Virus genome (UHGV): UHGV-2008342
Direction: 5' to 3' (one strand)
From: a virus
DNA: 47,571 nucleotides
Positions within the stretch are counted from its first letter, which is position 1, and each line of letters starts with the position of its first letter. The notes below the pieces were generated by a model. That model searched no databases and was not told the DNA's origin. It worked only from the letters and a program-made list of their open reading frames with translations. Shown one piece after another: positions 3,309-47,571 of the stretch. The position numbers and the translations under genes are program-made.

Positions 3309-3884
3309 CTACGGCAGGGCTGGCCATTCAATATCCTGTGCAGTTGACGTATCAACACGGTTCAGCAATACCCGATACTTTTTCCATGCTTCCAGCAACG
3401 AGATTTCTTCCTCCGTTGCAATTTCCAGATCTGCAGCATCCTGAAGCGGCGCAATATGCTCACTGGCTACCTGCATCAGGTTGTTTTTTGTTTCTTCCGC
3501 CTCCCGGATCCGGAACAGTTTTTCTGCTTCCGTATCCTTCACCCAGGCTGTGCCGTTCCACTTCTGAAACTCCCCTTCCGGCGATAACCAGGTAACATTT
3601 TCCGGTAACGGACCGAGTTCAGAAATAAATAACGCGTCGCCGGAAGCCACGTCATAAACCGTTTTACCCCGATGATCTTCAACGAGATGCCACGATGACT
3701 CATCACTGTTGAAAACAGCCACGAAGCCAGCCGGAATATCTGGCGGTGCAATATCGGTACTGTTTGCTGGCAGACCTGTATGAGGCGGAATATATGCATC
3801 ACCTTCACCAATAAATTCATTAGTTCCGGCCAGCAGATTATAAATTTTTATGGTCCGTGGTTGTTCACTCATTCTGAATGCCAT
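3309..3884 (-). CDS. tfa: tail fibre assembly protein (Tfa)
   Basis: 191 aa, Tfa-family sequence; start overlaps the stf stop at 3884. Confidence 0.85.
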
Positions 3885-28388: not shown

Positions 28389-28584
28389 CTTTTTTAAATC
28401 CAACGACAGACGGCTGGCATTTAAGTATTGTGAAATATTATCAAATGTAATCATCATTGATTTACAAAAGATACATTTTGCCCCGAAAGGATTCATGTCA
28501 GAAACATCAAAAGATGATGTTCTATACTGGGAACCATGACAACACGGGCATCTAAAGTGAATATGGTTTGTAATATTGTCTACC

Positions 28585-28797
28585 TCAAAGCGCCACTACA
28601 TGAACAGCGGCAGGACCTTTAGGTCCGTTCTCAATACCAAATTCAACTTCCTGATTCTCAGTTAATGTTTTGAAATCGTTGCTCTGAATTGCTGAGAAAT
28701 GGACAAACACATCTTTGCTGCCATCTTTCGGCGTGATGAAACCAAAACCTTTTTCAGGGTTAAACCATTTCACTAAACCAGTCATTTTGTTAGACAT
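28585..28797 (-). CDS. cspI: CspA-family cold shock protein
   Basis: 70 aa, [37 protein letters not shown] with RNP1/RNP2 motifs. Qin cspI position. Confidence 0.85.
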
Positions 28798-29160
28798 AAT
28801 TATTACCTTTTGAAGAAATTAGCCCTTGGGCAGAATGGTCCGAAAAAAAATATCAGAGAGAAAAACCAACAAGGAAATCTCAAGAGGTACAAATAATAAA
28901 ATTATAACAATGACTGCTTCAGATAAATTTGTAACAAACCAGAACACCATTAACGCATGATTAACCACCCATAGCAAGGATTACTTTTGTAAAGAAAAAC
29001 ACAGCAATGAAAGAATAGCTTTATTTATTAATAATAACGTGTCATTCTGATTAAGACCTTTTATCTTACCCTTAAGATTTCAGGAATTTTGGCTCATGGA
29101 AGAGTCCTTTTTATTTAAATTTTACATTCCGCGATGTAAATGTTCCGATTTAATATTACC

Positions 29161-31186: not shown

Positions 31187-31469
31187 TTGAGATTGTGGTG
31201 CTTTTTGTGGGAGTCATCCACTTACGCACTTTGTTTTGCCATGCCAGCAGTTAGCTTCTGCTGTAAAACTATTCATGCAGCAAACCTGCACTTCACCACA
31301 ATGGTTAGCATACTTTTCCTGATTAAGATTTTGCCAAATATGCTAGCCATTGTTTCATGTATTGGACCTCCTTACTTTTTATTAAAGAGATCCAATATTC
31401 ACTACTCTGTCCGTATCTCTACTCAGGCATCAGCCTTCTTCGTTATCGTATACAGACGAGCGATGAATT

Positions 31470-31685
31470 TTAATCAGTAATGATGACATTTGCTGCTGCA
31501 GGACCTTTAGCACCACTCTCTATAGAGAAGGTAACCTTTTGACCTTCAAATAAGGTTCGATAATTATCATTCTGAATCGCAGAAAAATGCACAAACACAT
31601 CTTTACTACCATCAACAGGAGAAATAAAGCCGAAACCTTTATCAGCGTTAAACCATTTTACTAAACCAGTCATTTTATTTGACAT
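31470..31685 (-). CDS. cspB: CspA-family cold shock protein
   Basis: 71 aa, [37 protein letters not shown]. Confidence 0.85.
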
Positions 31686-31985
31686 TCTACATTCCTTAAC
31701 TTGAGCCTTTCGGCATAAATGGTTTGCATAACAGAAACGACTTCGTACTTAATTGGAGAGACTCAAAGAAGGAATAAGTGAATAACACCTGAAATGAGAA
31801 CTGCTTTAGTAAACTACTTCGTATATCGTCTGTTCTTCAAACCGACGCAATCATTAACGCATAGTTGAACATATGAAGCAATGTTTATTTTAGACATCCA
31901 GCCATCTTCAACCCCATCAAAAAACTATAGCTTTCTTCAGGAACGTGTGTATAGTGCGCCAAGTTATCAGTATTAAGGAATTTTT

Positions 31986-38700: not shown

Positions 38701-38980
38701 ATTACAGCTTGGTGTTAACAATAGCCTGCTTCTCCTTGCCTTTCGGCACGTAAGAGGCTAACCTACATGTGTCTGGCATGAAATTGGCCTCAGATTAATG
38801 TTAAGCGTCTTGCAGGACGCGTAATGTTAACTGGGGCTTTTCTCTACCTGCCGTTGGTGTTCGTGCCCGAGGCAGATAGCCTCAAGCACCCGCAGTCATT
38901 CTACTTAACTAAGATTTCCCCGCAAACCGTTTTTGTCCAGCACAGTAAATATCCAACTAAACCAATGGAGTTCGCTGTAT

Positions 38981-42148: not shown

Positions 42149-42596
42149 TTGCTTTTTCTATAAGTTCGTCAGTTTCACGATCCACTACGGCAGGATCAGC
42201 AAAAAGCAGTCCGGACTCCACCACATCGCCATATTCTTTGTTTAACCCGGCGATCATGCACGTGATGCTTTTTCCGTCAGTAATTTCACGATACAACCTG
42301 AAATCACTAATCCGGATAGCCTCCATAATCGCAGGCACTAGCGCCGTGAACTTTTCACGCTTATCCCTGGTGTCGATAGCCTTCCAGCGTTCGAATATCT
42401 TCACTCGATTAACACCAAGCGCTCGCTGATCAACCGCGCCACCTTCATCTGTGACACGCTGAACATCGATGTTCGGGCGCTCTTTCAAAGCCCAGAATGC
42501 TTCAGTGATTAATATCGTCGCCTGCTCCTGTGTCATTCCTGGTCGACATATCCAGGCATCCAGAGCCTCACGAGCCTGTTCAGGAGTGATTTTCAT
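42075..42596 (-). CDS. early protein in the cII/YdaT position between the cro-like gene and O
   Basis: 173-aa ORF MKITPEQAREALDAWICRPGMTQEQATILITEAFWALKERPNIDVQRV... Its length (96+77) suggests it is the intact form of the K-12 ydfX/ydfW fragments; that is inference. Confidence 0.5.
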   Translation of the reverse strand: MKITPEQAREALDAWICRPGMTQEQATILITEAFWALKERPNIDVQRVTDEGGAVDQRALGVNRVKIFERWKAIDTRDKREKFTALVPAIMEAIRISDFRLYREITDGKSITCMIAGLNKEYGDVVESGLLFADPAVVDRETDELIEKAIAFKLAYRQQYQQKAGWNYEPSFC

Positions 42597-42810
42597 TGTT
42601 CAACCGCCCCGCCCGCTTCGTCTTACGATATTCATCATAAACTTTGGGATCATACTGAAGCTCCCCGCCAGATGCCTCCTGTAGACGCATCGCGCGACCT
42701 TCGGGAACTAAATCCCCTTTCCAGCTATAAAGCGAAGCCAAACGAATACCTGCTGCTTGTGCAAGTTTTGTTTTTGAACCGAAATACAAAAGAGCGTCAG
42801 TTTTAAGCAT
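42580..42810 (-). CDS. dicC: DicC, cro-like regulator
   Basis: 76 aa MLKTDALLYFGSKTKLAQAAGIRLASLYSWKGDLVPEGRAMRLQEASGGELQYDPKVYDEYRK. Divergent from dicA. Confidence 0.85.
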   Translation of the reverse strand: MLKTDALLYFGSKTKLAQAAGIRLASLYSWKGDLVPEGRAMRLQEASGGELQYDPKVYDEYRKTKRAGRLNNENHS

Positions 42811-42893
42811 TTAAAACACCTTTATTGTTAGTCATAACTAACAAGATAGATGTTAACAAAAACATAGTCAATACGATTTAGCATTAGCTAACT
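42811..42893. promoter_or_regulatory. dicA-dicC divergent promoter and operator region
   Basis: Perfect 20-bp palindrome TTGTTAGTCATAACTAACAA at 42825-42844 and palindrome TTAGCATTAGCTAA at 42878-42891. A related half-site TGTTAGTCAT lies downstream of dicA near 43372. Confidence 0.6.
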
Positions 42894-43301
42894 ATGGAAA
42901 CAAAAAATTTAACTATCGGCGAACGCATCAGGTATCGTCGGAAAAACCTCAAACACACCCAAAGGTCTCTTGCTAAAGCCCTGAAAATCTCCCATGTGTC
43001 TGTATCACAATGGGAACGGGGTGATAGTGAACCTACAGGGAAGAACCTTTTTGCCCTCAGCAAAGTATTGCAATGCTCACCAACATGGATTCTATTTGGC
43101 GATGAAGACAAGCAACCAACACCACCTGTTGAGAAGCCAGTTGCCTTATCCCCCAAAGAACTAGAGCTCCTTGAGCTGTTTAATGCACTGCCAGAATCAG
43201 AACAGGATACCCAGCTCGCCGAAATGCGAGCTCGAGTAAGAAACTTCAATAAACTCTTTGAAGAATTACTAAAAGCCCGTCAGCGGACAAATAAAAGATA
43301 A
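42894..43301 (+). CDS. dicA: DicA, HTH-XRE repressor
   Basis: 135 aa METKNLTIGERIRYRRKNLKHTQRSLAKALKISHVSVSQWERGDSEPTGKNLFALSKVLQCSPTWILFG. Confidence 0.9.
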   Translation: METKNLTIGERIRYRRKNLKHTQRSLAKALKISHVSVSQWERGDSEPTGKNLFALSKVLQCSPTWILFGDEDKQPTPPVEKPVALSPKELELLELFNALPESEQDTQLAEMRARVRNFNKLFEELLKARQRTNKR

Positions 43302-43467
43302 CATCATCAATGAGTTATCTTTTACCACATCAATTATGTTAGCTATAGCATACAAAATCACTTGACCGATATGTTAGTCATGGCTAATCTTGTTTGCATC
43401 AACACACCGCACGGTGTTCTCAGCAAACAGTTCCGCTACCCCAGCGTTAAGGGGAAATGAGGTCAGC

Positions 43468-43623
43468 ATGGATACTATCGATCTTGGCAACAACGAATCT
43501 CTGGTGTACGGCGTGTTTCCAAACCAGGACGGTACGTTCACCGCGATGACGTATACCAAAAGCAAAACGTTTAAAACCGAAAATGGTGCCCGTCGCTGGC
43601 TGGAAAGAAACTCAGGTGAGTGA
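43468..43623 (+). CDS. ydfA: YdfA
   Basis: 51 aa MDTIDLGNNESLVYGVFPNQDGTFTAMTYTKSKTFKTENGARRWLERNSGE. ATG at 43468 with a GGGGAAATGAGG SD. Confidence 0.8.
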   Translation: MDTIDLGNNESLVYGVFPNQDGTFTAMTYTKSKTFKTENGARRWLERNSGE

Positions 43624-43624
43624 T

Positions 43625-43753
43625 ATGGATTTCGACACAATCATGGAAAAGGCTTACGAAGAATACTTCGAAGGTCTTGCCGACGGCGAAGAAGCTCTCA
43701 GCTTCAACGAATTTAAACAGGCGCTTTCCAGTTCGGCAAAATCTAACGGCTGA
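43625..43753 (+). CDS. ydfB: YdfB
   Basis: 42 aa MDFDTIMEKAYEEYFEGLADGEEALSFNEFKQALSSSAKSNG. Starts 2 nt after the ydfA stop. Confidence 0.75.
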   Translation: MDFDTIMEKAYEEYFEGLADGEEALSFNEFKQALSSSAKSNG

Positions 43754-43782
43754 TAAGCGAAACAGCACCGCGAGGAATCAGT

Positions 43783-44001
43783 ATGCAGAAACGAGAACCC
43801 GTCATCATCGCGCCAGACTATACCGATGATGAACTTTATGAGTGGATGCGCCAGAAAATTAATGCAGCGCAGGATCTGAAATGGGCCAATGAAGCCAGGG
43901 CTAAGCAGGCTGAAAATCTGTCCGCTCTGGAGCAGGATATCACCAGGCTGGAAAAAGCAGCGGCATTAAGCATTGCAAGAATGATTACATACCCACGTTA
44001 A
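43783..44001 (+). CDS. ydfC: YdfC
   Basis: 72 aa MQKREPVIIAPDYTDDELYEWMRQKINAAQDLKWANEARAKQAENLSALEQDITRLEKAAALSIARMITYPR. Confidence 0.8.
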   Translation: MQKREPVIIAPDYTDDELYEWMRQKINAAQDLKWANEARAKQAENLSALEQDITRLEKAAALSIARMITYPR

Positions 44002-44023
44002 TAGCTAACCAACGAGGCTAATA

Positions 44024-44431
44024 ATGGAATTTAAAGATTTACCAAAAGAAATCCAGACAATTGCTGCAACGACTCTCGGTGATAGTCTGGTGAAAATTGA
44101 CCCGGCATACACCAAAAAAGAAACCATCGATAATATGGTTTGTAATGTGCGCAATGCTTTTTCTGGGCTATATGGTTCTGATAATCAAAAGCAGGAAAGC
44201 GATGTTAATAAACGGGTAATTTCTGTTTGCGTGAATGGCCATGTTCTTTCATCAATCAAAACAGAAACGGCGACAGTCTTCGATTGCCTTTGCATTGTAC
44301 AGAGCCTTGTTGATGCCCTGTTTCGTTCAGTGAATTTAGAAAATGATGCAAATCTGCGAGGGCGCACAATAGCACATCCATATGCACATACTTTAGGCTC
44401 TGTGGATATCAAAGATCCCACAAATCTTTAA
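44024..44431 (+). CDS. hypothetical protein A (135 aa), part of a low-GC insert in the dicB operon
   Basis: ORF MEFKDLPKEIQTIAATTLGDSLVKIDPAYTKKETIDNMVCNVRNAFSGLYGSDNQKQ... No family recognised. From memory, not present between ydfC and dicF in K-12. Confidence 0.5.
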   Translation: MEFKDLPKEIQTIAATTLGDSLVKIDPAYTKKETIDNMVCNVRNAFSGLYGSDNQKQESDVNKRVISVCVNGHVLSSIKTETATVFDCLCIVQSLVDALFRSVNLENDANLRGRTIAHPYAHTLGSVDIKDPTNL

Positions 44432-44642
44432 TGAAATAGTTAACGCGAATTGTACTTGCTCTTTCAGTTGCTTTCAGAATACGCGTTGAAACTGCTGGCG
44501 GTAATTTGGTATTCCATTTATTAAAATCATGCCCGGGAAAGTACTCTTCGAAAATACTTTTAACTGCAGACTCGCCTATTGAAATGCTGCTTACCATGCG
44601 ATTTTGATAAAGGCATTTAGCAATAAGAGTTGATTTTAACAT
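44409..44642 (-). CDS. hypothetical protein B (77 aa), convergent with A and overlapping it by 23 bp
   Basis: ORF MLKSTLIAKCLYQNRMVSSISIGESAVKSIFEEYFPGHDFNKWNTKLPPAVSTRILKATERASTIRVNYFIKDLWDL. Antisense to the surrounding early operon. Confidence 0.45.
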   Translation of the reverse strand: MLKSTLIAKCLYQNRMVSSISIGESAVKSIFEEYFPGHDFNKWNTKLPPAVSTRILKATERASTIRVNYFIKDLWDL

Positions 44643-44974
44643 TCACCCTCCTGAGGGTTGGTAATTAAGGAGTTCTCCACGGGTGAAGTGGAGTGCGTGC
44701 GCCGGACACGGGTGAACATCCGGCACTGACAGTTTACTGAAAGGATATATCCCTGAAAAGTCAGGGCATAACGCGAAAGCGCACGGCGAGGTAGCTGGTT
44801 CATAGATAGCCTGTCGTTAAATTTTCGTCGACCGTGCGCTTCCGGTTGTGGCAATCCGCGAAATGGCGCGGCGGTAAGTATGGCGGGGTTATTCCTTACC
44901 CCCATTGGTGGCACCGGGTTGTCAGGTTGACCATACGCCTGAGTGACAACCCCGCTACAACAACCCATGTTGAT

Positions 44975-45028
44975 TACCTTTTGGCGGGTATCCGTTTTTT
45001 GTTTTCCCTTGTGATACCCGCCCTTTTT
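44975..45028 (+). ncRNA. dicF: DicF-like small RNA (variant sequence); 5' end approximate
   Basis: Lies between ydfC and dicB. Terminator hairpin GGCGGGTATC...GATACCCGCC followed by CTTTTT; the downstream sequence AAAGTGAATTTTGTGATG matches my recollection of the K-12 dicF 3' flank. The body differs from the K-12 DicF sequence as I recall it. Confidence 0.5.
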
Positions 45029-45209
45029 AAAGTGAATTTTGTGATGCGGTGAATGCGGCTCAGCGCACGCGGAACAGTTAAAAAGCGATTAGTTCCCCCG
45101 TATCGGGTGTTTATGGGTTTCCCTGTATCCGGCGTTAATTGTTAACTGGTTAACGTCACCTGGAGGCACCAGGCACCGCATCACAAAATTCATTGTTGAG
45201 GACGCGATA

Positions 45210-45392
45210 ATGGAAACGTTATTACCAAACGTCAATACGTCTGAAGGTTGTTTTGAAATTGGTGTCAGAATCAGTAACCCTGTATTTACTGAAGATGCCA
45301 TTAATAAGAGAAAACACGAACGGGAGCTATTAAATCAAATATGCATTGTTTCAATGCTGGCCCGTTTACGCCTGATGCAAAAAGGACGCTGA
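45210..45392 (+). CDS. dicB: DicB cell-division inhibitor
   Basis: 60 aa METLLPNVNTSEGCFEIGVRISNPVFTEDAINKRKHERELLNQICIVSMLARLRLMQKGR. Confidence 0.85.
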   Translation: METLLPNVNTSEGCFEIGVRISNPVFTEDAINKRKHERELLNQICIVSMLARLRLMQKGR

Positions 45393-45394
45393 CA

Positions 45395-45598
45395 ATGAAT
45401 ACAGCATTTGCACTCGTTCTGACAGTTTTTCTTAATACAGGCGAACCAGTCGATCTTGTTATTGGTATACATGACTCAATGAAAGAATGCATGGCTGCCG
45501 CAGCGGAACAGAAAATTCCCGGCAACTGTTATCCGGTTGATAAAGTTATTCGCATGGACAATAACGAAATCCCGGCAGGACTTAAAACAGCACCGTAA
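45395..45598 (+). CDS. ydfD: YdfD
   Basis: About 67 aa from MNTAFALVLTVFLNTGEPVDLVIGIHDSMKECMAAAAEQKIPGNCYPVDKVIRMDNNEIPAGLKTAP. ATG is 2 nt after the dicB stop. Confidence 0.75.
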   Translation: MNTAFALVLTVFLNTGEPVDLVIGIHDSMKECMAAAAEQKIPGNCYPVDKVIRMDNNEIPAGLKTAP

Positions 45599-45678
45599 TT
45601 AATATCCGGTTTCATTTTTATATGCCAGCAATGGCAGGGATTTGTTCACCCTTAAATCTGTAATGAGGTTAAAACAAA

Positions 45679-47571
45679 ATGAGTAAAGTCTTTATTTGCG
45701 CCGCCATTCCGGACGAACAGGCAATAAAGGAAGAAGGTGCAGTCGCTGTAGCCACTGCCATTGAAGCCGGCGACGAACGCCGCGCCCGTGCCAAATTTAC
45801 CTGGCAATTCCTGGAGCAATATCCGGCTGCTCAGGACTGCGCTTATAAATTTCTTGTCTGCGAGGATAAACCCGGCATGCCCCGCCCTGCCATCGACTCC
45901 TGGGATACCGAATATATGCTGGAAAACCGCTGGGATGAGGAAGGCGCTTCCTTTGTTCCGGTCGAACCAGAATCCGATCCGATGAACGTCAATTTTGACA
46001 AGCTGTCCCTTGAAGTACAGAACGCGGTCCTGGTTAAGTTCGGTACATGTGAAAACATCACCGTTGATATGGTGATTAGTGCACAGGAATTGTTGCAGGA
46101 GGACATGGCAACATTCGACGGGCATATCGTTGAGGCATTGATGAAAATGCCTGAAGTTAACGTCATGTATTCAGAACTAAAACTGCTCGCCATCGGGTGG
46201 GTTAAACATAAATGTAAGCCGGGTGCAAAATGGCCTGAGATCCAGACAGAATTACGCACCTGGAAAAAACGTCGCGAAGCCGAACGCAAAGAAACCGGGA
46301 AATACACGTCTGTTGTTGATCTTGCCCGCGCCAGAGTCAACCGGCAGCACACTGAAAACTCAGCAGGAAAAATCAACCCCGCCACTGCCGCCATTCGTCG
46401 CGAATACAAGCAGACATGGAAAACACTGGATGAAGAACTGGCCTGCGCTCTCTGGCCTGGTGATATTGATGCAGGAAACATTGACGGCAGCATCCATCGC
46501 TGGGCAAAAAATGAAGTTATCGACAAGGATCGCGAAGACTGGAAGCGCATCTCCGCATCAATGCGCAAACAGCCTGATGCGCTTCACTACAGCTGCCAGA
46601 CTATTTTCGGCCTCGTTCGTGAACGTCCGATCGACATTCACAAAGATCCTGTGGCGCTGAACAAATACATCACTGAATACCTGACTACAAAGGGCGTGTT
46701 TGAAGATGAAGGAACAAATCAGAGCGCAACTGATACTCTCCCGTCGCCAGTACCAGAAGCTGATGCAGTGGAAACGGCAATGCCGAACAACGAAAAAACC
46801 GAATGCGAAGTGGAAGCCGAATCATCTGTAGAACGAGAGGGGCCGTTCTATTTCCTTTTCACCGATAAGGACGGCGAAAAATACGGTCGCGCAAACAAAC
46901 TTTCTGGTCTGGAAAAAGCACTGGCCTTGGGAGCTACGGAAATCACAAAAGAGGAATACTTCGCACGTAAAAACGGCACGTACTCAGGTTCACAACAAAA
47001 TACTGGTGCATCTGACACGACCGCACAACCAGAGCCGGTAAAAGTTACCGCTGACGAAGTAAACAAAATTATGCAGGCAGCCAATATCAGCCAGCCTGAC
47101 GCCGATAAGTTGCTTGCGGCCTCTCGCGGTGAATTTGTTGCAGGAATTAGCGACCCGAATGATCCGAAATGGGTGAAGGGGATTGAAATCCGCGATTCAG
47201 TGAACCAGAACCAACAAGAAACGGAAAAAGTCTGCACCGCCTGCGGTCAGAGCGGTGGCGGCAACTGCCCTGATTGTGGCGCGGTGATGGGCGACGCAAC
47301 ATACCAGGAAACATTCAATGAAGAGAATCAGGTTGAAGTTCAGGAAAATGATCCGGAGGAAATGGAAGGCGCTGAACATCCACACAAGGAGAACACTGGC
47401 GGCAATCAGCATCACAATAGCGATAATGAAACTGGCGAGACGGCAGATCCCTTAATTGCGGTGAACGGTCATCACGAAATCACATCCACCAGCAGGACGT
47501 GTGACCATCTAATGATCGACCTTGAAACCATGGGAAAAAATCCTGATGCCCCGATTATCTCAATAGGTGCA
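45679..47571 (+). CDS. large early-operon protein, 3'-partial (at least 631 aa): YdfE-like N-terminus, acidic linker with CxxC...CxxC, then an exonuclease-like motif at the window edge
   Basis: Hand translation from the ATG at 45679 (MSKVFICAAIPDEQAIKEEGAVAVATAIEAGDERRARAKF...) has no stop through 47571. It is absent from the ORF track, probably because no stop lies in the window. The last residues, ...TCDHLMIDLETMGKNPDAPIISIGA, look like a DEDD/DnaQ-type exonuclease motif I. Confidence 0.6.
   Translation, partial: MSKVFICAAIPDEQAIKEEGAVAVATAIEAGDERRARAKFTWQFLEQYPAAQDCAYKFLVCEDKPGMPRPAIDSWDTEYMLENRWDEEGASFVPVEPESDPMNVNFDKLSLEVQNAVLVKFGTCENITVDMVISAQELLQEDMATFDGHIVEALMKMPEVNVMYSELKLLAIGWVKHKCKPGAKWPEIQTELRTWKKRREAERKETGKYTSVVDLARARVNRQHTENSAGKINPATAAIRREYKQTWKTLDEELACALWPGDIDAGNIDGSIHRWAKNEVIDKDREDWKRISASMRKQPDALHYSCQTIFGLVRERPIDIHKDPVALNKYITEYLTTKGVFEDEGTNQSATDTLPSPVPEADAVETAMPNNEKTECEVEAESSVEREGPFYFLFTDKDGEKYGRANKLSGLEKALALGATEITKEEYFARKNGTYSGSQQNTGASDTTAQPEPVKVTADEVNKIMQAANISQPDADKLLAASRGEFVAGISDPNDPKWVKGIEIRDSVNQNQQETEKVCTACGQSGGGNCPDCGAVMGDATYQETFNEENQVEVQENDPEEMEGAEHPHKENTGGNQHHNSDNETGETADPLIAVNGHHEITSTSRTCDHLMIDLETMGKNPDAPIISIGA

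Follow-up and report, generated by a model that had tools for sequence, protein, structure and literature searches.

An open frame at the right edge of the window

Which gene lies at the right end of the viral genome UHGV-2008342, where a long plus-strand frame runs off the sequence and the accompanying list of open reading frames has no counterpart? In the 47,571-nucleotide stretch of DNA that was analyzed as a whole (the window), translation bore out an earlier note's claim of a continuous frame of at least 631 codons from position 45679: the segment 45679–47571 (+) contains 631 codons without a stop and is still open at the final base. The product begins with MSKVFICAAIPDE and meets the sequence edge with HLMIDLETMGKNPDAPIISIGA. 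An in-frame TGA (45664–45666) closes the frame upstream, ATG 45679 is the first start beyond it, and a Shine-Dalgarno-like GAGG (45665–45668, +), read from the sequence, stands 10 nt from this ATG. At a stop frequency of 3/64, the chance of 631 stop-free codons is ~7e-14 per start, indicating that the frame did not arise by chance, and dN/dS values of 0.15–0.20 against three homologues indicate that it is under purifying selection.

The frame is absent from the ORF list because that list leaves out any ORF that is still open at an end of the source; the absence pointed out in the earlier note is thus genuine but a technical artefact. The same note described only antisense ORFs at this position, which holds for the minus-strand entries (45652–46125, 45843–46568, 46848–47237, and others) but overlooks a few plus-strand ORFs that are out of frame. 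Judged by the comparisons below, 45679–47571 is the first ~80% of an annotated E. coli prophage gene, an uninterrupted version of K-12 ydfE, with the 5′ 631 codons of a YdfE-family exonuclease gene whose full length would be 791 codons.

The frame is an uninterrupted ydfE

Residues 1–255 of the frame product (the YdfE_N domain, 45679–46443, +) are 87% identical to residues 1–255 of K-12 YdfE and match phrog_5943 over residues 1–257 (1.9e-165). Precomputed Pfam annotation places PF27430 (YdfE_N) on proteins identical to the frame product over 631 residues, and PF27432 (YdfE_C) on one 791-residue E. coli protein, P0002. K-12 ydfE also has the corresponding operon position, following dicB and ydfD, and in the family this slot lies before xis and int; the resemblance of the N-terminus to the ydfE position in Qin, proposed from the letters alone, therefore extends to both sequence identity and operon position. 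K-12 ydfE (b1577, Qin prophage) is annotated as a pseudogene and keeps only its first ~255 codons, with IS2E beginning at the codon where similarity stops, whereas the copy in the window is uninterrupted over 631 codons. The earlier note's statement that an IS2 insertion truncates the K-12 gene was thus correct. It is the long multidomain form that is native, and the K-12 pseudogene represents a 5′ fragment of it.

The gene was already known from public annotation. The frame product matches phrog_2082, labeled "exonuclease", with the match spanning model positions 1–517 and beyond, and among the matches listed the gene is annotated as an exonuclease and adjoins dicB and a DUF1482 gene. A search of 5426 complete E. 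coli genomes recovered homologous DNA in 4794 of them (~88%). The family is common yet has never been studied: our literature search found no functional study of ydfE or of Rv2179c-like phage exonucleases.

Catalytic motifs II and III belong to the ~160 codons past the sequence edge, and for this reason intactness is not demonstrable from the window alone. The 791-residue E. coli proteins P0002–P0006 are ~100% identical to the frame product over the visible 631 residues (P0004 differs at one residue), and from this identity we infer that the gene is intact here and 791 codons long. The loci encoding P0002 and P0004 have DNA 99.6–99.7% identical to window positions 43397–47571 and are integrated beside yccA, as compared to the ydfJ/Qin site for the window; among complete E. 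coli genomes, the best match reaches 95.3% identity over 45300–47571. The earlier suggestion that an intact fusion is preserved therefore stands insofar as the gene is an uninterrupted version of ydfE, with its intactness drawn from the 791-residue proteins, but the word "fusion" is misleading.

The gene ends a dicBF-type operon

The left flank of the window (ydfJ/ydfK/pinQ) bounds the Qin locus on the left, and a long late-gene region lies on the minus strand. The immunity region contains a gene for a DicA-like HTH repressor (42894–43301, +), which matches PHROG transcriptional repressor families and has an HTH_3 domain in the homologous locus L005. Upstream of the frame lie dicB, encoding a cell-division inhibitor (45210–45392, +; annotation under the match, and PF05358 DicB in its L005 counterpart), and a ydfD-like DUF1482 gene (45395–45598, +; DUF1482 annotation in H1–H15 and L005, phrog_1092). 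An 80-nt gap separates the DUF1482 gene from the exonuclease gene, which belongs to the same operon as dicB. The frame is thus the last gene of a DicA-repressed, PL-like early-left operon of the dicBF type in a Qin-type lambdoid prophage of E. coli. In K-12, the dicB promoter (dicBp) is PL-like and DicA-repressed and its operon includes ydfE, but DicF, DicB, and YdfD are the only members that have been characterized and no transcript reaching ydfE was detected (PMC10448788).

Searches for further elements gave the following results. In the relatives, an excisionase gene and then an integrase gene follow downstream, and no annealase gene was found there, which answers the question of an adjacent annealase or integrase that the earlier note had raised; annealase families were likewise absent from the PHROG matches of the upstream early-left operon ORFs in the window. 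DicF had no Rfam match in the window, and a promoter and terminator scan of 42500–47571 was uninformative, with counts within ~2 SD of those in shuffled sequences.

The visible end of the frame opens a DEDDh exonuclease domain

The last 22 residues of the frame (47506–47571, +) match positions 2–23 of PF16473 (Rv2179c-like) with an E-value of 2.3e-5 and a score of 24.6 bits, short of the 27-bit cut-off for the sole reason that the sequence edge truncates the domain. These residues would be the first 22 of a DEDDh 3′–5′ exonuclease domain of the Rv2179c/DexA type, and they contain motif I (DLET) with D614 (47518–47520) and E616 (47524–47526). The earlier reading of the final residues as a DEDD-type motif I gains further from 823-residue relatives, in which the whole PF16473 domain is found at 1.3e-62 and 6.7e-67, so that the domain search proposed for the full protein, run on full-length relatives, does recover a complete nuclease domain. 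The 791-residue proteins also carry PF16473 in the precomputed Pfam list. Past the window edge, P0002 has D714 in GNGANFD and H764 and D769 in HNALDD; all five catalytic residues (D614, E616, D714, H764, and D769) are therefore present in 791-residue proteins that are identical over the visible part. The three DEDDh motifs are conserved across full-length relatives, in at least 96 of 105.

When a profile of the DEDDh domain was compared with the PDB, only T4 DexA (exonuclease A) was matched (8KEL, E 4.6e-15), and the structure of Rv2179c gave no match at E ≤ 0.01. T4 DexA is a 3′–5′ DNA exonuclease (PMC12153337). DexA (8KEL/8KEN) is homologous to the C-terminal domain and shares its DEDDh catalytic motifs, but identity is ~28% and the match covers only ~70% of the domain; in addition, DexA is a small stand-alone protein, whereas here the DexA-like domain forms the tail of a 791-residue protein. 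Higher identity is seen with stand-alone Rv2179c-like exonucleases from E. coli phages. Gene 31 of Bas106 and the N15-like YDC107_1 are 55–59% identical over the whole DEDDh domain, but they have only 182–199 residues and lack the rest of the YdfE-family protein. The Bas106 homologue (59%) lies in an erf-ssb-endonuclease-exonuclease-abc2 module, with an Erf annealase and SSB alongside.

The remainder of the protein shares its center with RecE

In an AF2 model, YdfE_N consists of an alpha/beta block (residues 1–100) and a helical block (105–206), mostly with pLDDT ~90. The middle region (residues 256–450; 46444–47028, +) is homologous to the non-catalytic center of RecE by NF007259 and BLASTP, and is probably the Pfam YdfE_C region; the AF2 model gives it a helical block (245–340), a disordered acidic stretch (344–384), and a beta-hairpin/helix module (386–432). 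A linker (47029–47505, +) contains a Cys4 zinc-ribbon-like motif (C519, C522, C530, and C533; 47233–47277) followed by an acidic, His-rich tail. The Cys4 stretch gives weak Pfam zinc-ribbon matches, both of which are below their cut-offs. By BLASTP, similarity to RecE is greatest in this linker (RecE ~455–591), and the DNA is 74% identical to recE over nucleotides 1425–1778 of the ORF.

Overall, positions 243–603 of the NCBIfam RecE model NF007259 match residues 219–594 of the frame product (1.3e-70), and BLASTP against K-12 RecE agrees. RecE, which is exonuclease VIII of the Rac prophage, resembles the YdfE-family protein in size and is also a large protein encoded in an early-left operon; its central region, including the Cys4 ribbon and acidic tail (RecE ~294–591), is homologous to that of the frame product, with ~80% identity in the last 130 residues of the common region. 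The two proteins differ at both ends. The N-terminal Exonuc_VIII domain of RecE (PF06630) was matched neither by the window protein nor by full-length relatives, which have YdfE_N instead, and where RecE has a PD-(D/E)XK 5′–3′ nuclease domain (PF12684, residues 615–850), the full-length relatives of the gene have PF16473. RecE also has a recT-type partner gene, but none lies beside the YdfE-family gene, where xis and int follow in the relatives. We therefore rejected an identification as RecE, since the N-terminal and nuclease domains differ and the NF007259 score (238.6 bits; 280.4 bits for an 823-residue relative) is far below the cut-off of 1269.

Among the relatives, either N-terminal domain, YdfE_N or RecE_N, occurs with either head, DEDDh or PD-(D/E)XK. 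A third head has a RAD52 fold: the top eight Foldseek matches are all to human RAD52 (E 8e-7 to 8e-6). By sequence, this alternative C-terminal domain gave nothing in Pfam and nothing in a PDB profile search, and its RAD52-like identity is visible only by structure comparison. The RAD52-fold head occurs in Klebsiella or Enterobacter relatives, with a Gp157-family gene adjacent. The genes for proteins with this scaffold lie after kil and before xis/int, and Gam was present only in two loci (L013 and L014).

A predicted exonuclease for phage DNA ends, and the alternatives

We favor, with a probability of roughly 0.6, the prediction that the gene encodes an early-expressed 3′–5′ DNA exonuclease of a phage DNA-end-processing module. 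When DicA repression is lifted, the gene would be co-transcribed with dicB and the ydfD-like gene; the scaffold formed by the N-terminal and central regions would bring the nuclease domain to a substrate or partner; and the C-terminal domain would remove nucleotides from free DNA 3′ ends by two-metal-ion (Mg2+) catalysis. Such an enzyme may process DNA ends for the recombination and replication program of the phage, in this case without a cognate annealase. The proposed role follows from the fact that the scaffold carries nuclease or annealase heads, all of them in the recombination slot just upstream of xis/int. Annealase-driven recombination does not usually act on 5′ overhangs, and these are what a 3′–5′ exonuclease leaves. 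The expected 5′ overhangs count against the DNA-end-processing role, as do the lack of an annealase in the operon or downstream in relatives, the lack of a detected K-12 transcript reaching ydfE, the naming of the Pfam family after an exoribonuclease, and the position of motifs II and III outside the window. No experiment on a YdfE-family exonuclease protein was found in the literature.

The nuclease could instead serve in anti-phage defense or superinfection exclusion, as an enzyme of the HREX type that degrades modified (e.g., 5hmC-containing) T-even DNA and spares host DNA. Its domain is homologous to DexA, prophages carry the gene and it is widespread in E. coli, and EcD (HREX), a DexA homologue encoded on an E. 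coli plasmid, breaks down T4 DNA and confers protection against T4 (PMC12153337). DicB, whose gene belongs to the same operon, is already protective against some phages (PMC6832061). EcD, however, is a different protein, and the residue numbering in PMC12153337 suggests a small stand-alone enzyme. We considered whether EcD (HAK9828821.1) might be the same protein and rejected this, because its cloning primers encode the termini MIDTET... and ...IPETYD*, as compared to MIDLETMG... and ...IPNPVDF for a YdfE-family protein; the 23-nt segment of the EcD 3′ primer had no match in viral contigs. The residues proposed for 5hmC recognition (a Trp and DexA D169) lie outside the part of the alignment that is reliable. 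With PADLOC, the sole match is a generic DEDDh one (1.5e-5). DicA keeps the operon repressed in the lysogen, the state in which a resident defense would have to be expressed. We consider a defensive role of this kind unlikely.

The substrate could also be RNA, given that PF16473 is named after an exoribonuclease, Rv2179c of M. tuberculosis. A 3′–5′ exoribonuclease might act on the polycistronic RNA of the operon, on a DicF-type sRNA, on host RNAs, on nanoRNAs, or on linear signaling nucleotides. Many family members are named "3′-5′ exoribonuclease" by NCBI, the RNA of the dicBF operon is heavily processed (PMC10448788), and DEDD dinucleases often act without distinguishing RNA from DNA (PMC11706625). 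The only solved relative found by sequence profile, however, is DexA, a DNA exonuclease, with the Rv2179c structure unmatched at the threshold given above; the scaffold is common to DNA recombination proteins (the RecE nuclease and the RAD52-fold annealase); and the stand-alone Bas106 homologue belongs to a DNA recombination module. These comparisons make an RNA-directed activity improbable as the main role.

Least of all do we credit the idea that the gene in this genome is a decaying or truncated remnant without function, as in K-12, that has not yet accumulated stop codons: the unseen last ~160 codons, the IS2E-interrupted K-12 copy, some family members in which the motif I glutamate is gone or internal stretches are duplicated (P0024, P0094, and P0008), and a 32-residue in-frame deletion relative to the common 823-residue form could be cited for it, but they are outweighed by the 631 stop-free codons, the dN/dS of 0.15–0.20, the complete 791-residue variant in several independent assemblies, the location of the deletion in a part of the linker that is outside the AF2 model and under relaxed constraint (dN/dS 0.36), the occurrence of the gene in the phage genomes mEp460, Tritos, and HannyBb, and the long minus-strand late-gene region of the window. 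Full-length family members are 89–100% identical to the frame product.

Implications

The right end of the window thus holds a real 2.4-kb gene that is invisible in the ORF list, crosses the sequence edge, and already has a name in public annotation. Its product, a predicted 3′–5′ DNA exonuclease, is one of the most widespread E. coli prophage proteins, encoded last in the dicBF operon and never studied. The protein combines a RecE-like scaffold with a DexA-like 3′–5′ exonuclease in place of the 5′–3′ nuclease of RecE, which raises the question of what the scaffold does, a question sharpened by the RAD52-fold sister proteins and by the missing partner annealase in a recombination slot. A more speculative proposal, which we regard as doubtful, is that the YdfE_N/YdfE_C-RecE scaffold is a shared delivery platform of lambdoid prophages with interchangeable DNA-processing heads, and that the DEDDh version, which most E. 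coli genomes contain and which has no cognate annealase, has an undescribed function that is not RecE-like. If this proposal were true, the undescribed function could be 3′-end-directed resection that serves recombination with host factors or, alternatively, destruction of DNA, either foreign or from the host, in the manner of DexA/HREX.

A selected open frame runs off the end of the window

Translation of the plus strand from the ATG at 45679 gave 631 sense codons, the last of which ends at the window's final base (45679-47571), for a product that starts MSKVFICAAIPDE and ends HLMIDLETMGKNPDAPIISIGA. An in-frame TGA lies upstream of this ATG (45664-45666), and a GAGG (45665-45668) precedes it with a 10-nt spacer. 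By our own arithmetic, assuming a stop frequency of 3/64, a stop-free run of 631 codons has a probability of ~7e-14. Compared with three homologues, dN/dS was 0.15-0.20 for the frame and 0.36 in the linker, indicating that the frame is selected coding sequence. All ORFs listed for this region are on the minus strand, apart from a few plus-strand ones in other frames; by rule the list leaves out ORFs crossing either end, and thus the absence of the frame is a track artefact. The frame described in the earlier note, and its omission from the track, are therefore confirmed, and the evidence supports the interpretation offered there, apart from minor caveats.

The gene is a ydfE uninterrupted in its visible part

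Residues 1-255 are 87% identical to the K-12 pseudogene ydfE, and the similarity ends exactly at the start of IS2E, as expected from the earlier note's statement that K-12 ydfE is cut by IS2 and from its placement of the N-terminus. Of 5426 complete E. coli genomes, 4794 contain homologous DNA. Listed E. coli records annotate the gene, adjoining dicB and DUF1482, as 'exonuclease' or '3'-5' exonuclease', and it also occurs in phage records (e.g., mEp460, Tritos, HannyBb, and the PPompW prophages). Annotated full-length copies have 823 aa and are followed by excisionase and integrase; one such copy and the window protein share 89% identity, apart from 32 linker residues missing in frame from the latter. 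The absent residues (QNDQKAEQNSQNALQNEPETKQPEPVAQQEPK-like) would fall between codons 515 and 516 (~47223-47226), in a low-complexity linker just ahead of the Cys4 ribbon, and several E. coli assemblies carry the same 791-aa variant.

A protein search found E. coli proteins of 791 aa (P0002-P0006) that match every one of the 631 visible residues, and window 43397-47571 is 99.6-99.7% identical in DNA to their prophage loci (L005-L008), where a DUF4224 excisionase-like gene and then an integrase gene lie downstream. From these matches, we infer that the full gene here probably has 791 codons, 80% of them inside the window; the proposal that an intact gene is preserved agrees with the 791-aa proteins over 631 residues, but the window alone cannot prove it. 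The gene is a member of an already annotated family, the same as public proteins over its visible part, and is not novel.

A RecE-like centre joined to a DEDDh exonuclease domain

The NCBIfam RecE model aligned to residues 219-594 through model positions 243-603 only, with a score of 239 bits where the cut-off is 1269. BLASTP against K-12 RecE aligned RecE 294-591, ending just short of the nuclease domains, with very high likeness over the Cys4 ribbon and the acidic, His-rich tail, where DNA identity to recE is 74%. RecE has a PF06630 N-terminal domain and a PF12684 PD-(D/E)XK nuclease, neither of which is shared; the window protein joins its RecE-like centre to another N-terminus and another nuclease, of opposite polarity to RecE's. 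Because these domains are not shared and the score is far below the cut-off, we rejected identity with RecE; many records label the protein exodeoxyribonuclease VIII.

Precomputed Pfam assignments for P0002-P0006 are YdfE_N (PF27430), YdfE_C (PF27432), and Rv2179c-like (PF16473). The window reaches only positions 2-23 of the PF16473 model (E 2.3e-5), and motif I of P0002 (D614 and E616) lies inside it, bearing out the reading of the terminal peptide as a DEDD-type motif I. The full-protein domain search suggested in the earlier note was done on 823-aa relatives and gave PF16473 at 1.3e-62 and 6.7e-67. The remaining DEDDh residues of P0002 are D714 (GNGANFD) and H764 and D769 (HNALDD), and at least 96 of 105 full-length relatives retain the motifs, most exceptions being conservative. 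Some copies in E. coli genomes appear to be decaying: among a few full-length family members, the motif I glutamate is lost in P0024 (IGLKTMG) and P0094 (DLKTMG), and the stretch of linker and motif I is internally duplicated in P0008.

T4 DexA (8KEL/8KEN) is the sole solved structure that sequence searches linked to the domain (E 1.3e-6 with a single sequence, 4.6e-15 with a small profile). DexA is a 3'-5' exonuclease on DNA, and its E. coli homologue EcD is reported to degrade T4 DNA and protect against T4 (PMC12153337). Identity with EcD was rejected, as the EcD cloning primers encode MIDTET... and ...IPETYD*. The domain is common in phages (1279 matching records); stand-alone copies have 182-199 aa and are 55-59% identical, and one lies in an erf-ssb-endonuclease-exonuclease-abc2 module of phage Bas106.

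The scaffold occurs with different heads

An exhaustive search with residues 1-609, the scaffold of YdfE_N and RecE-like centre, found only 249 clusters among 1.84 billion representatives (E <= 0.001). Local domain mapping of long hits among the relatives P0121-P0270 recovered all four pairings of front (YdfE_N or RecE_N) and back (DEDDh or PD-(D/E)XK), including RecE_N with DEDDh (P0134) and YdfE_N with PD-(D/E)XK (P0130 and P0199). This mapping shows modular head-swapping on a shared centre inside one small family of 249 clusters.

A further scaffold group, from Klebsiella, Enterobacter, Kosakonia, Citrobacter, Pantoea, Salmonella, and E. albertii, includes relatives without a nuclease domain (L012:6001-8412, L013:6001-8337, and L014:6001-8337). 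The C-terminus of this group is a conserved ~270-aa domain (motif KKSLTDAxKKALSxLGFSADV) with no match in Pfam and none by sequence in the PDB. The top eight Foldseek matches of its AlphaFold model (pLDDT 82) were all human RAD52 (E 8e-7 to 8e-6, probability 1.0), and the domain is thus predicted to be an annealase-like head of RAD52 fold. Genes with this head occupy the same slot, after kilR and before xis/int; a Sipho_Gp157-family gene follows in all four loci examined, and L013 and L014 have a weak Gam match 5' of the gene. NCBI names these proteins 'exodeoxyribonuclease VIII' although they lack a nuclease domain, a label that looks like misannotation of a scaffold-annealase fusion. A 710-aa protein of Stenotrophomonas phage BUCT708 (L011:4974-7106) lacks any Pfam domain and shares 28% identity with YdfE_N over ~280 residues; its gene, too, occupies this early-left slot, ahead of a Gp157-family gene and xis/int, and the scaffold thus reaches outside Enterobacteriaceae.

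The gene lies in a dicBF operon

The window's first 3.3 kb match E. coli ydfJ-ydfK-pinQ, which forms the left border of the Qin prophage locus, at 100% identity, and a long late-gene region occupies the minus strand. Rfam matches at gathering level, all on that strand, are two cspA thermoregulator 5' UTRs (28558-28943 and 31454-31846), sok antitoxin RNA (38720-38891), and IS009 (3343-3541). On the plus strand at the right end are a DicA-like repressor gene (42894-43301), small ydfA- and ydfC-like genes, dicB (45210-45392), and a ydfD-like DUF1482 gene (45395-45598), with the open frame 80 nt further on. This gene set is the dicBF operon, for which ydfABC, dicF, dicB, and ydfDE are listed in K-12; there, dicBp is PL-like and under DicA repression, and only DicF, DicB, and YdfD are characterised (PMC10448788).

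The K-12 dicF slot (44962-45030, plus strand) has conserved flanks and a diverged core, and contains a perfect 10-bp hairpin (GGCGGGTATC...GATACCCGCC) with TTTTT after it. DicF had no Rfam match across the whole window, and the hairpin may be a DicF variant with another seed or a terminator only. Just 5' of dicB (45035-45187, plus strand) is a weak match to the sRNA family STnc100 (34.3 bits, E 2e-5), under its gathering score of 47. Two minus-strand ORFs, 44409-44642 (77 aa; matching phrog_10348) and 44636-44968 (110 aa; no PHROG match), lie within the operon, flanked by the ydfC-like gene and the dicF slot, and both are gene calls in L005 and L008.

The L005-L008 prophages sit beside yccA, whereas the window's left flank is ydfJ, at the Qin site, and identity over 45300-47571 is 95.3% at most in complete E. 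coli genomes. The window prophage is therefore either a mosaic or a case of one early module serving prophages at two attachment sites.

Possible roles of the protein

Derepression of the PL-like promoter would produce the protein together with DicB and the ydfD-like protein. The C-terminal domain would strip nucleotides from the 3' ends of what is most probably DNA, given its relationship to DexA and the scaffold's company, and the scaffold would direct it to its target. That nuclease- or annealase-headed versions of the scaffold recur in a recombination slot favours a part in DNA-end processing during lytic development. Against such a role stand several points: 3'-5' polarity is unusual for annealase-driven recombination, our literature search found no experiment on the protein, and no transcript reaching ydfE was detected in K-12 (PMC10448788). 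The earlier note proposed looking for a neighbouring annealase or integrase; excisionase and integrase come next in relatives, but an annealase was found neither downstream there nor in the window's dicBF-type operon, which also weighs against end processing. An HREX-type defence or exclusion nuclease is an unlikely alternative, and an exonuclease acting on RNA is improbable to a like degree, DNA being the likelier substrate. Least probable by some way is a remnant without function, given a frame under selection. What the analysis shows is the gene of a very common prophage protein, its place in the operon, its domain make-up, and its catalytic motifs.
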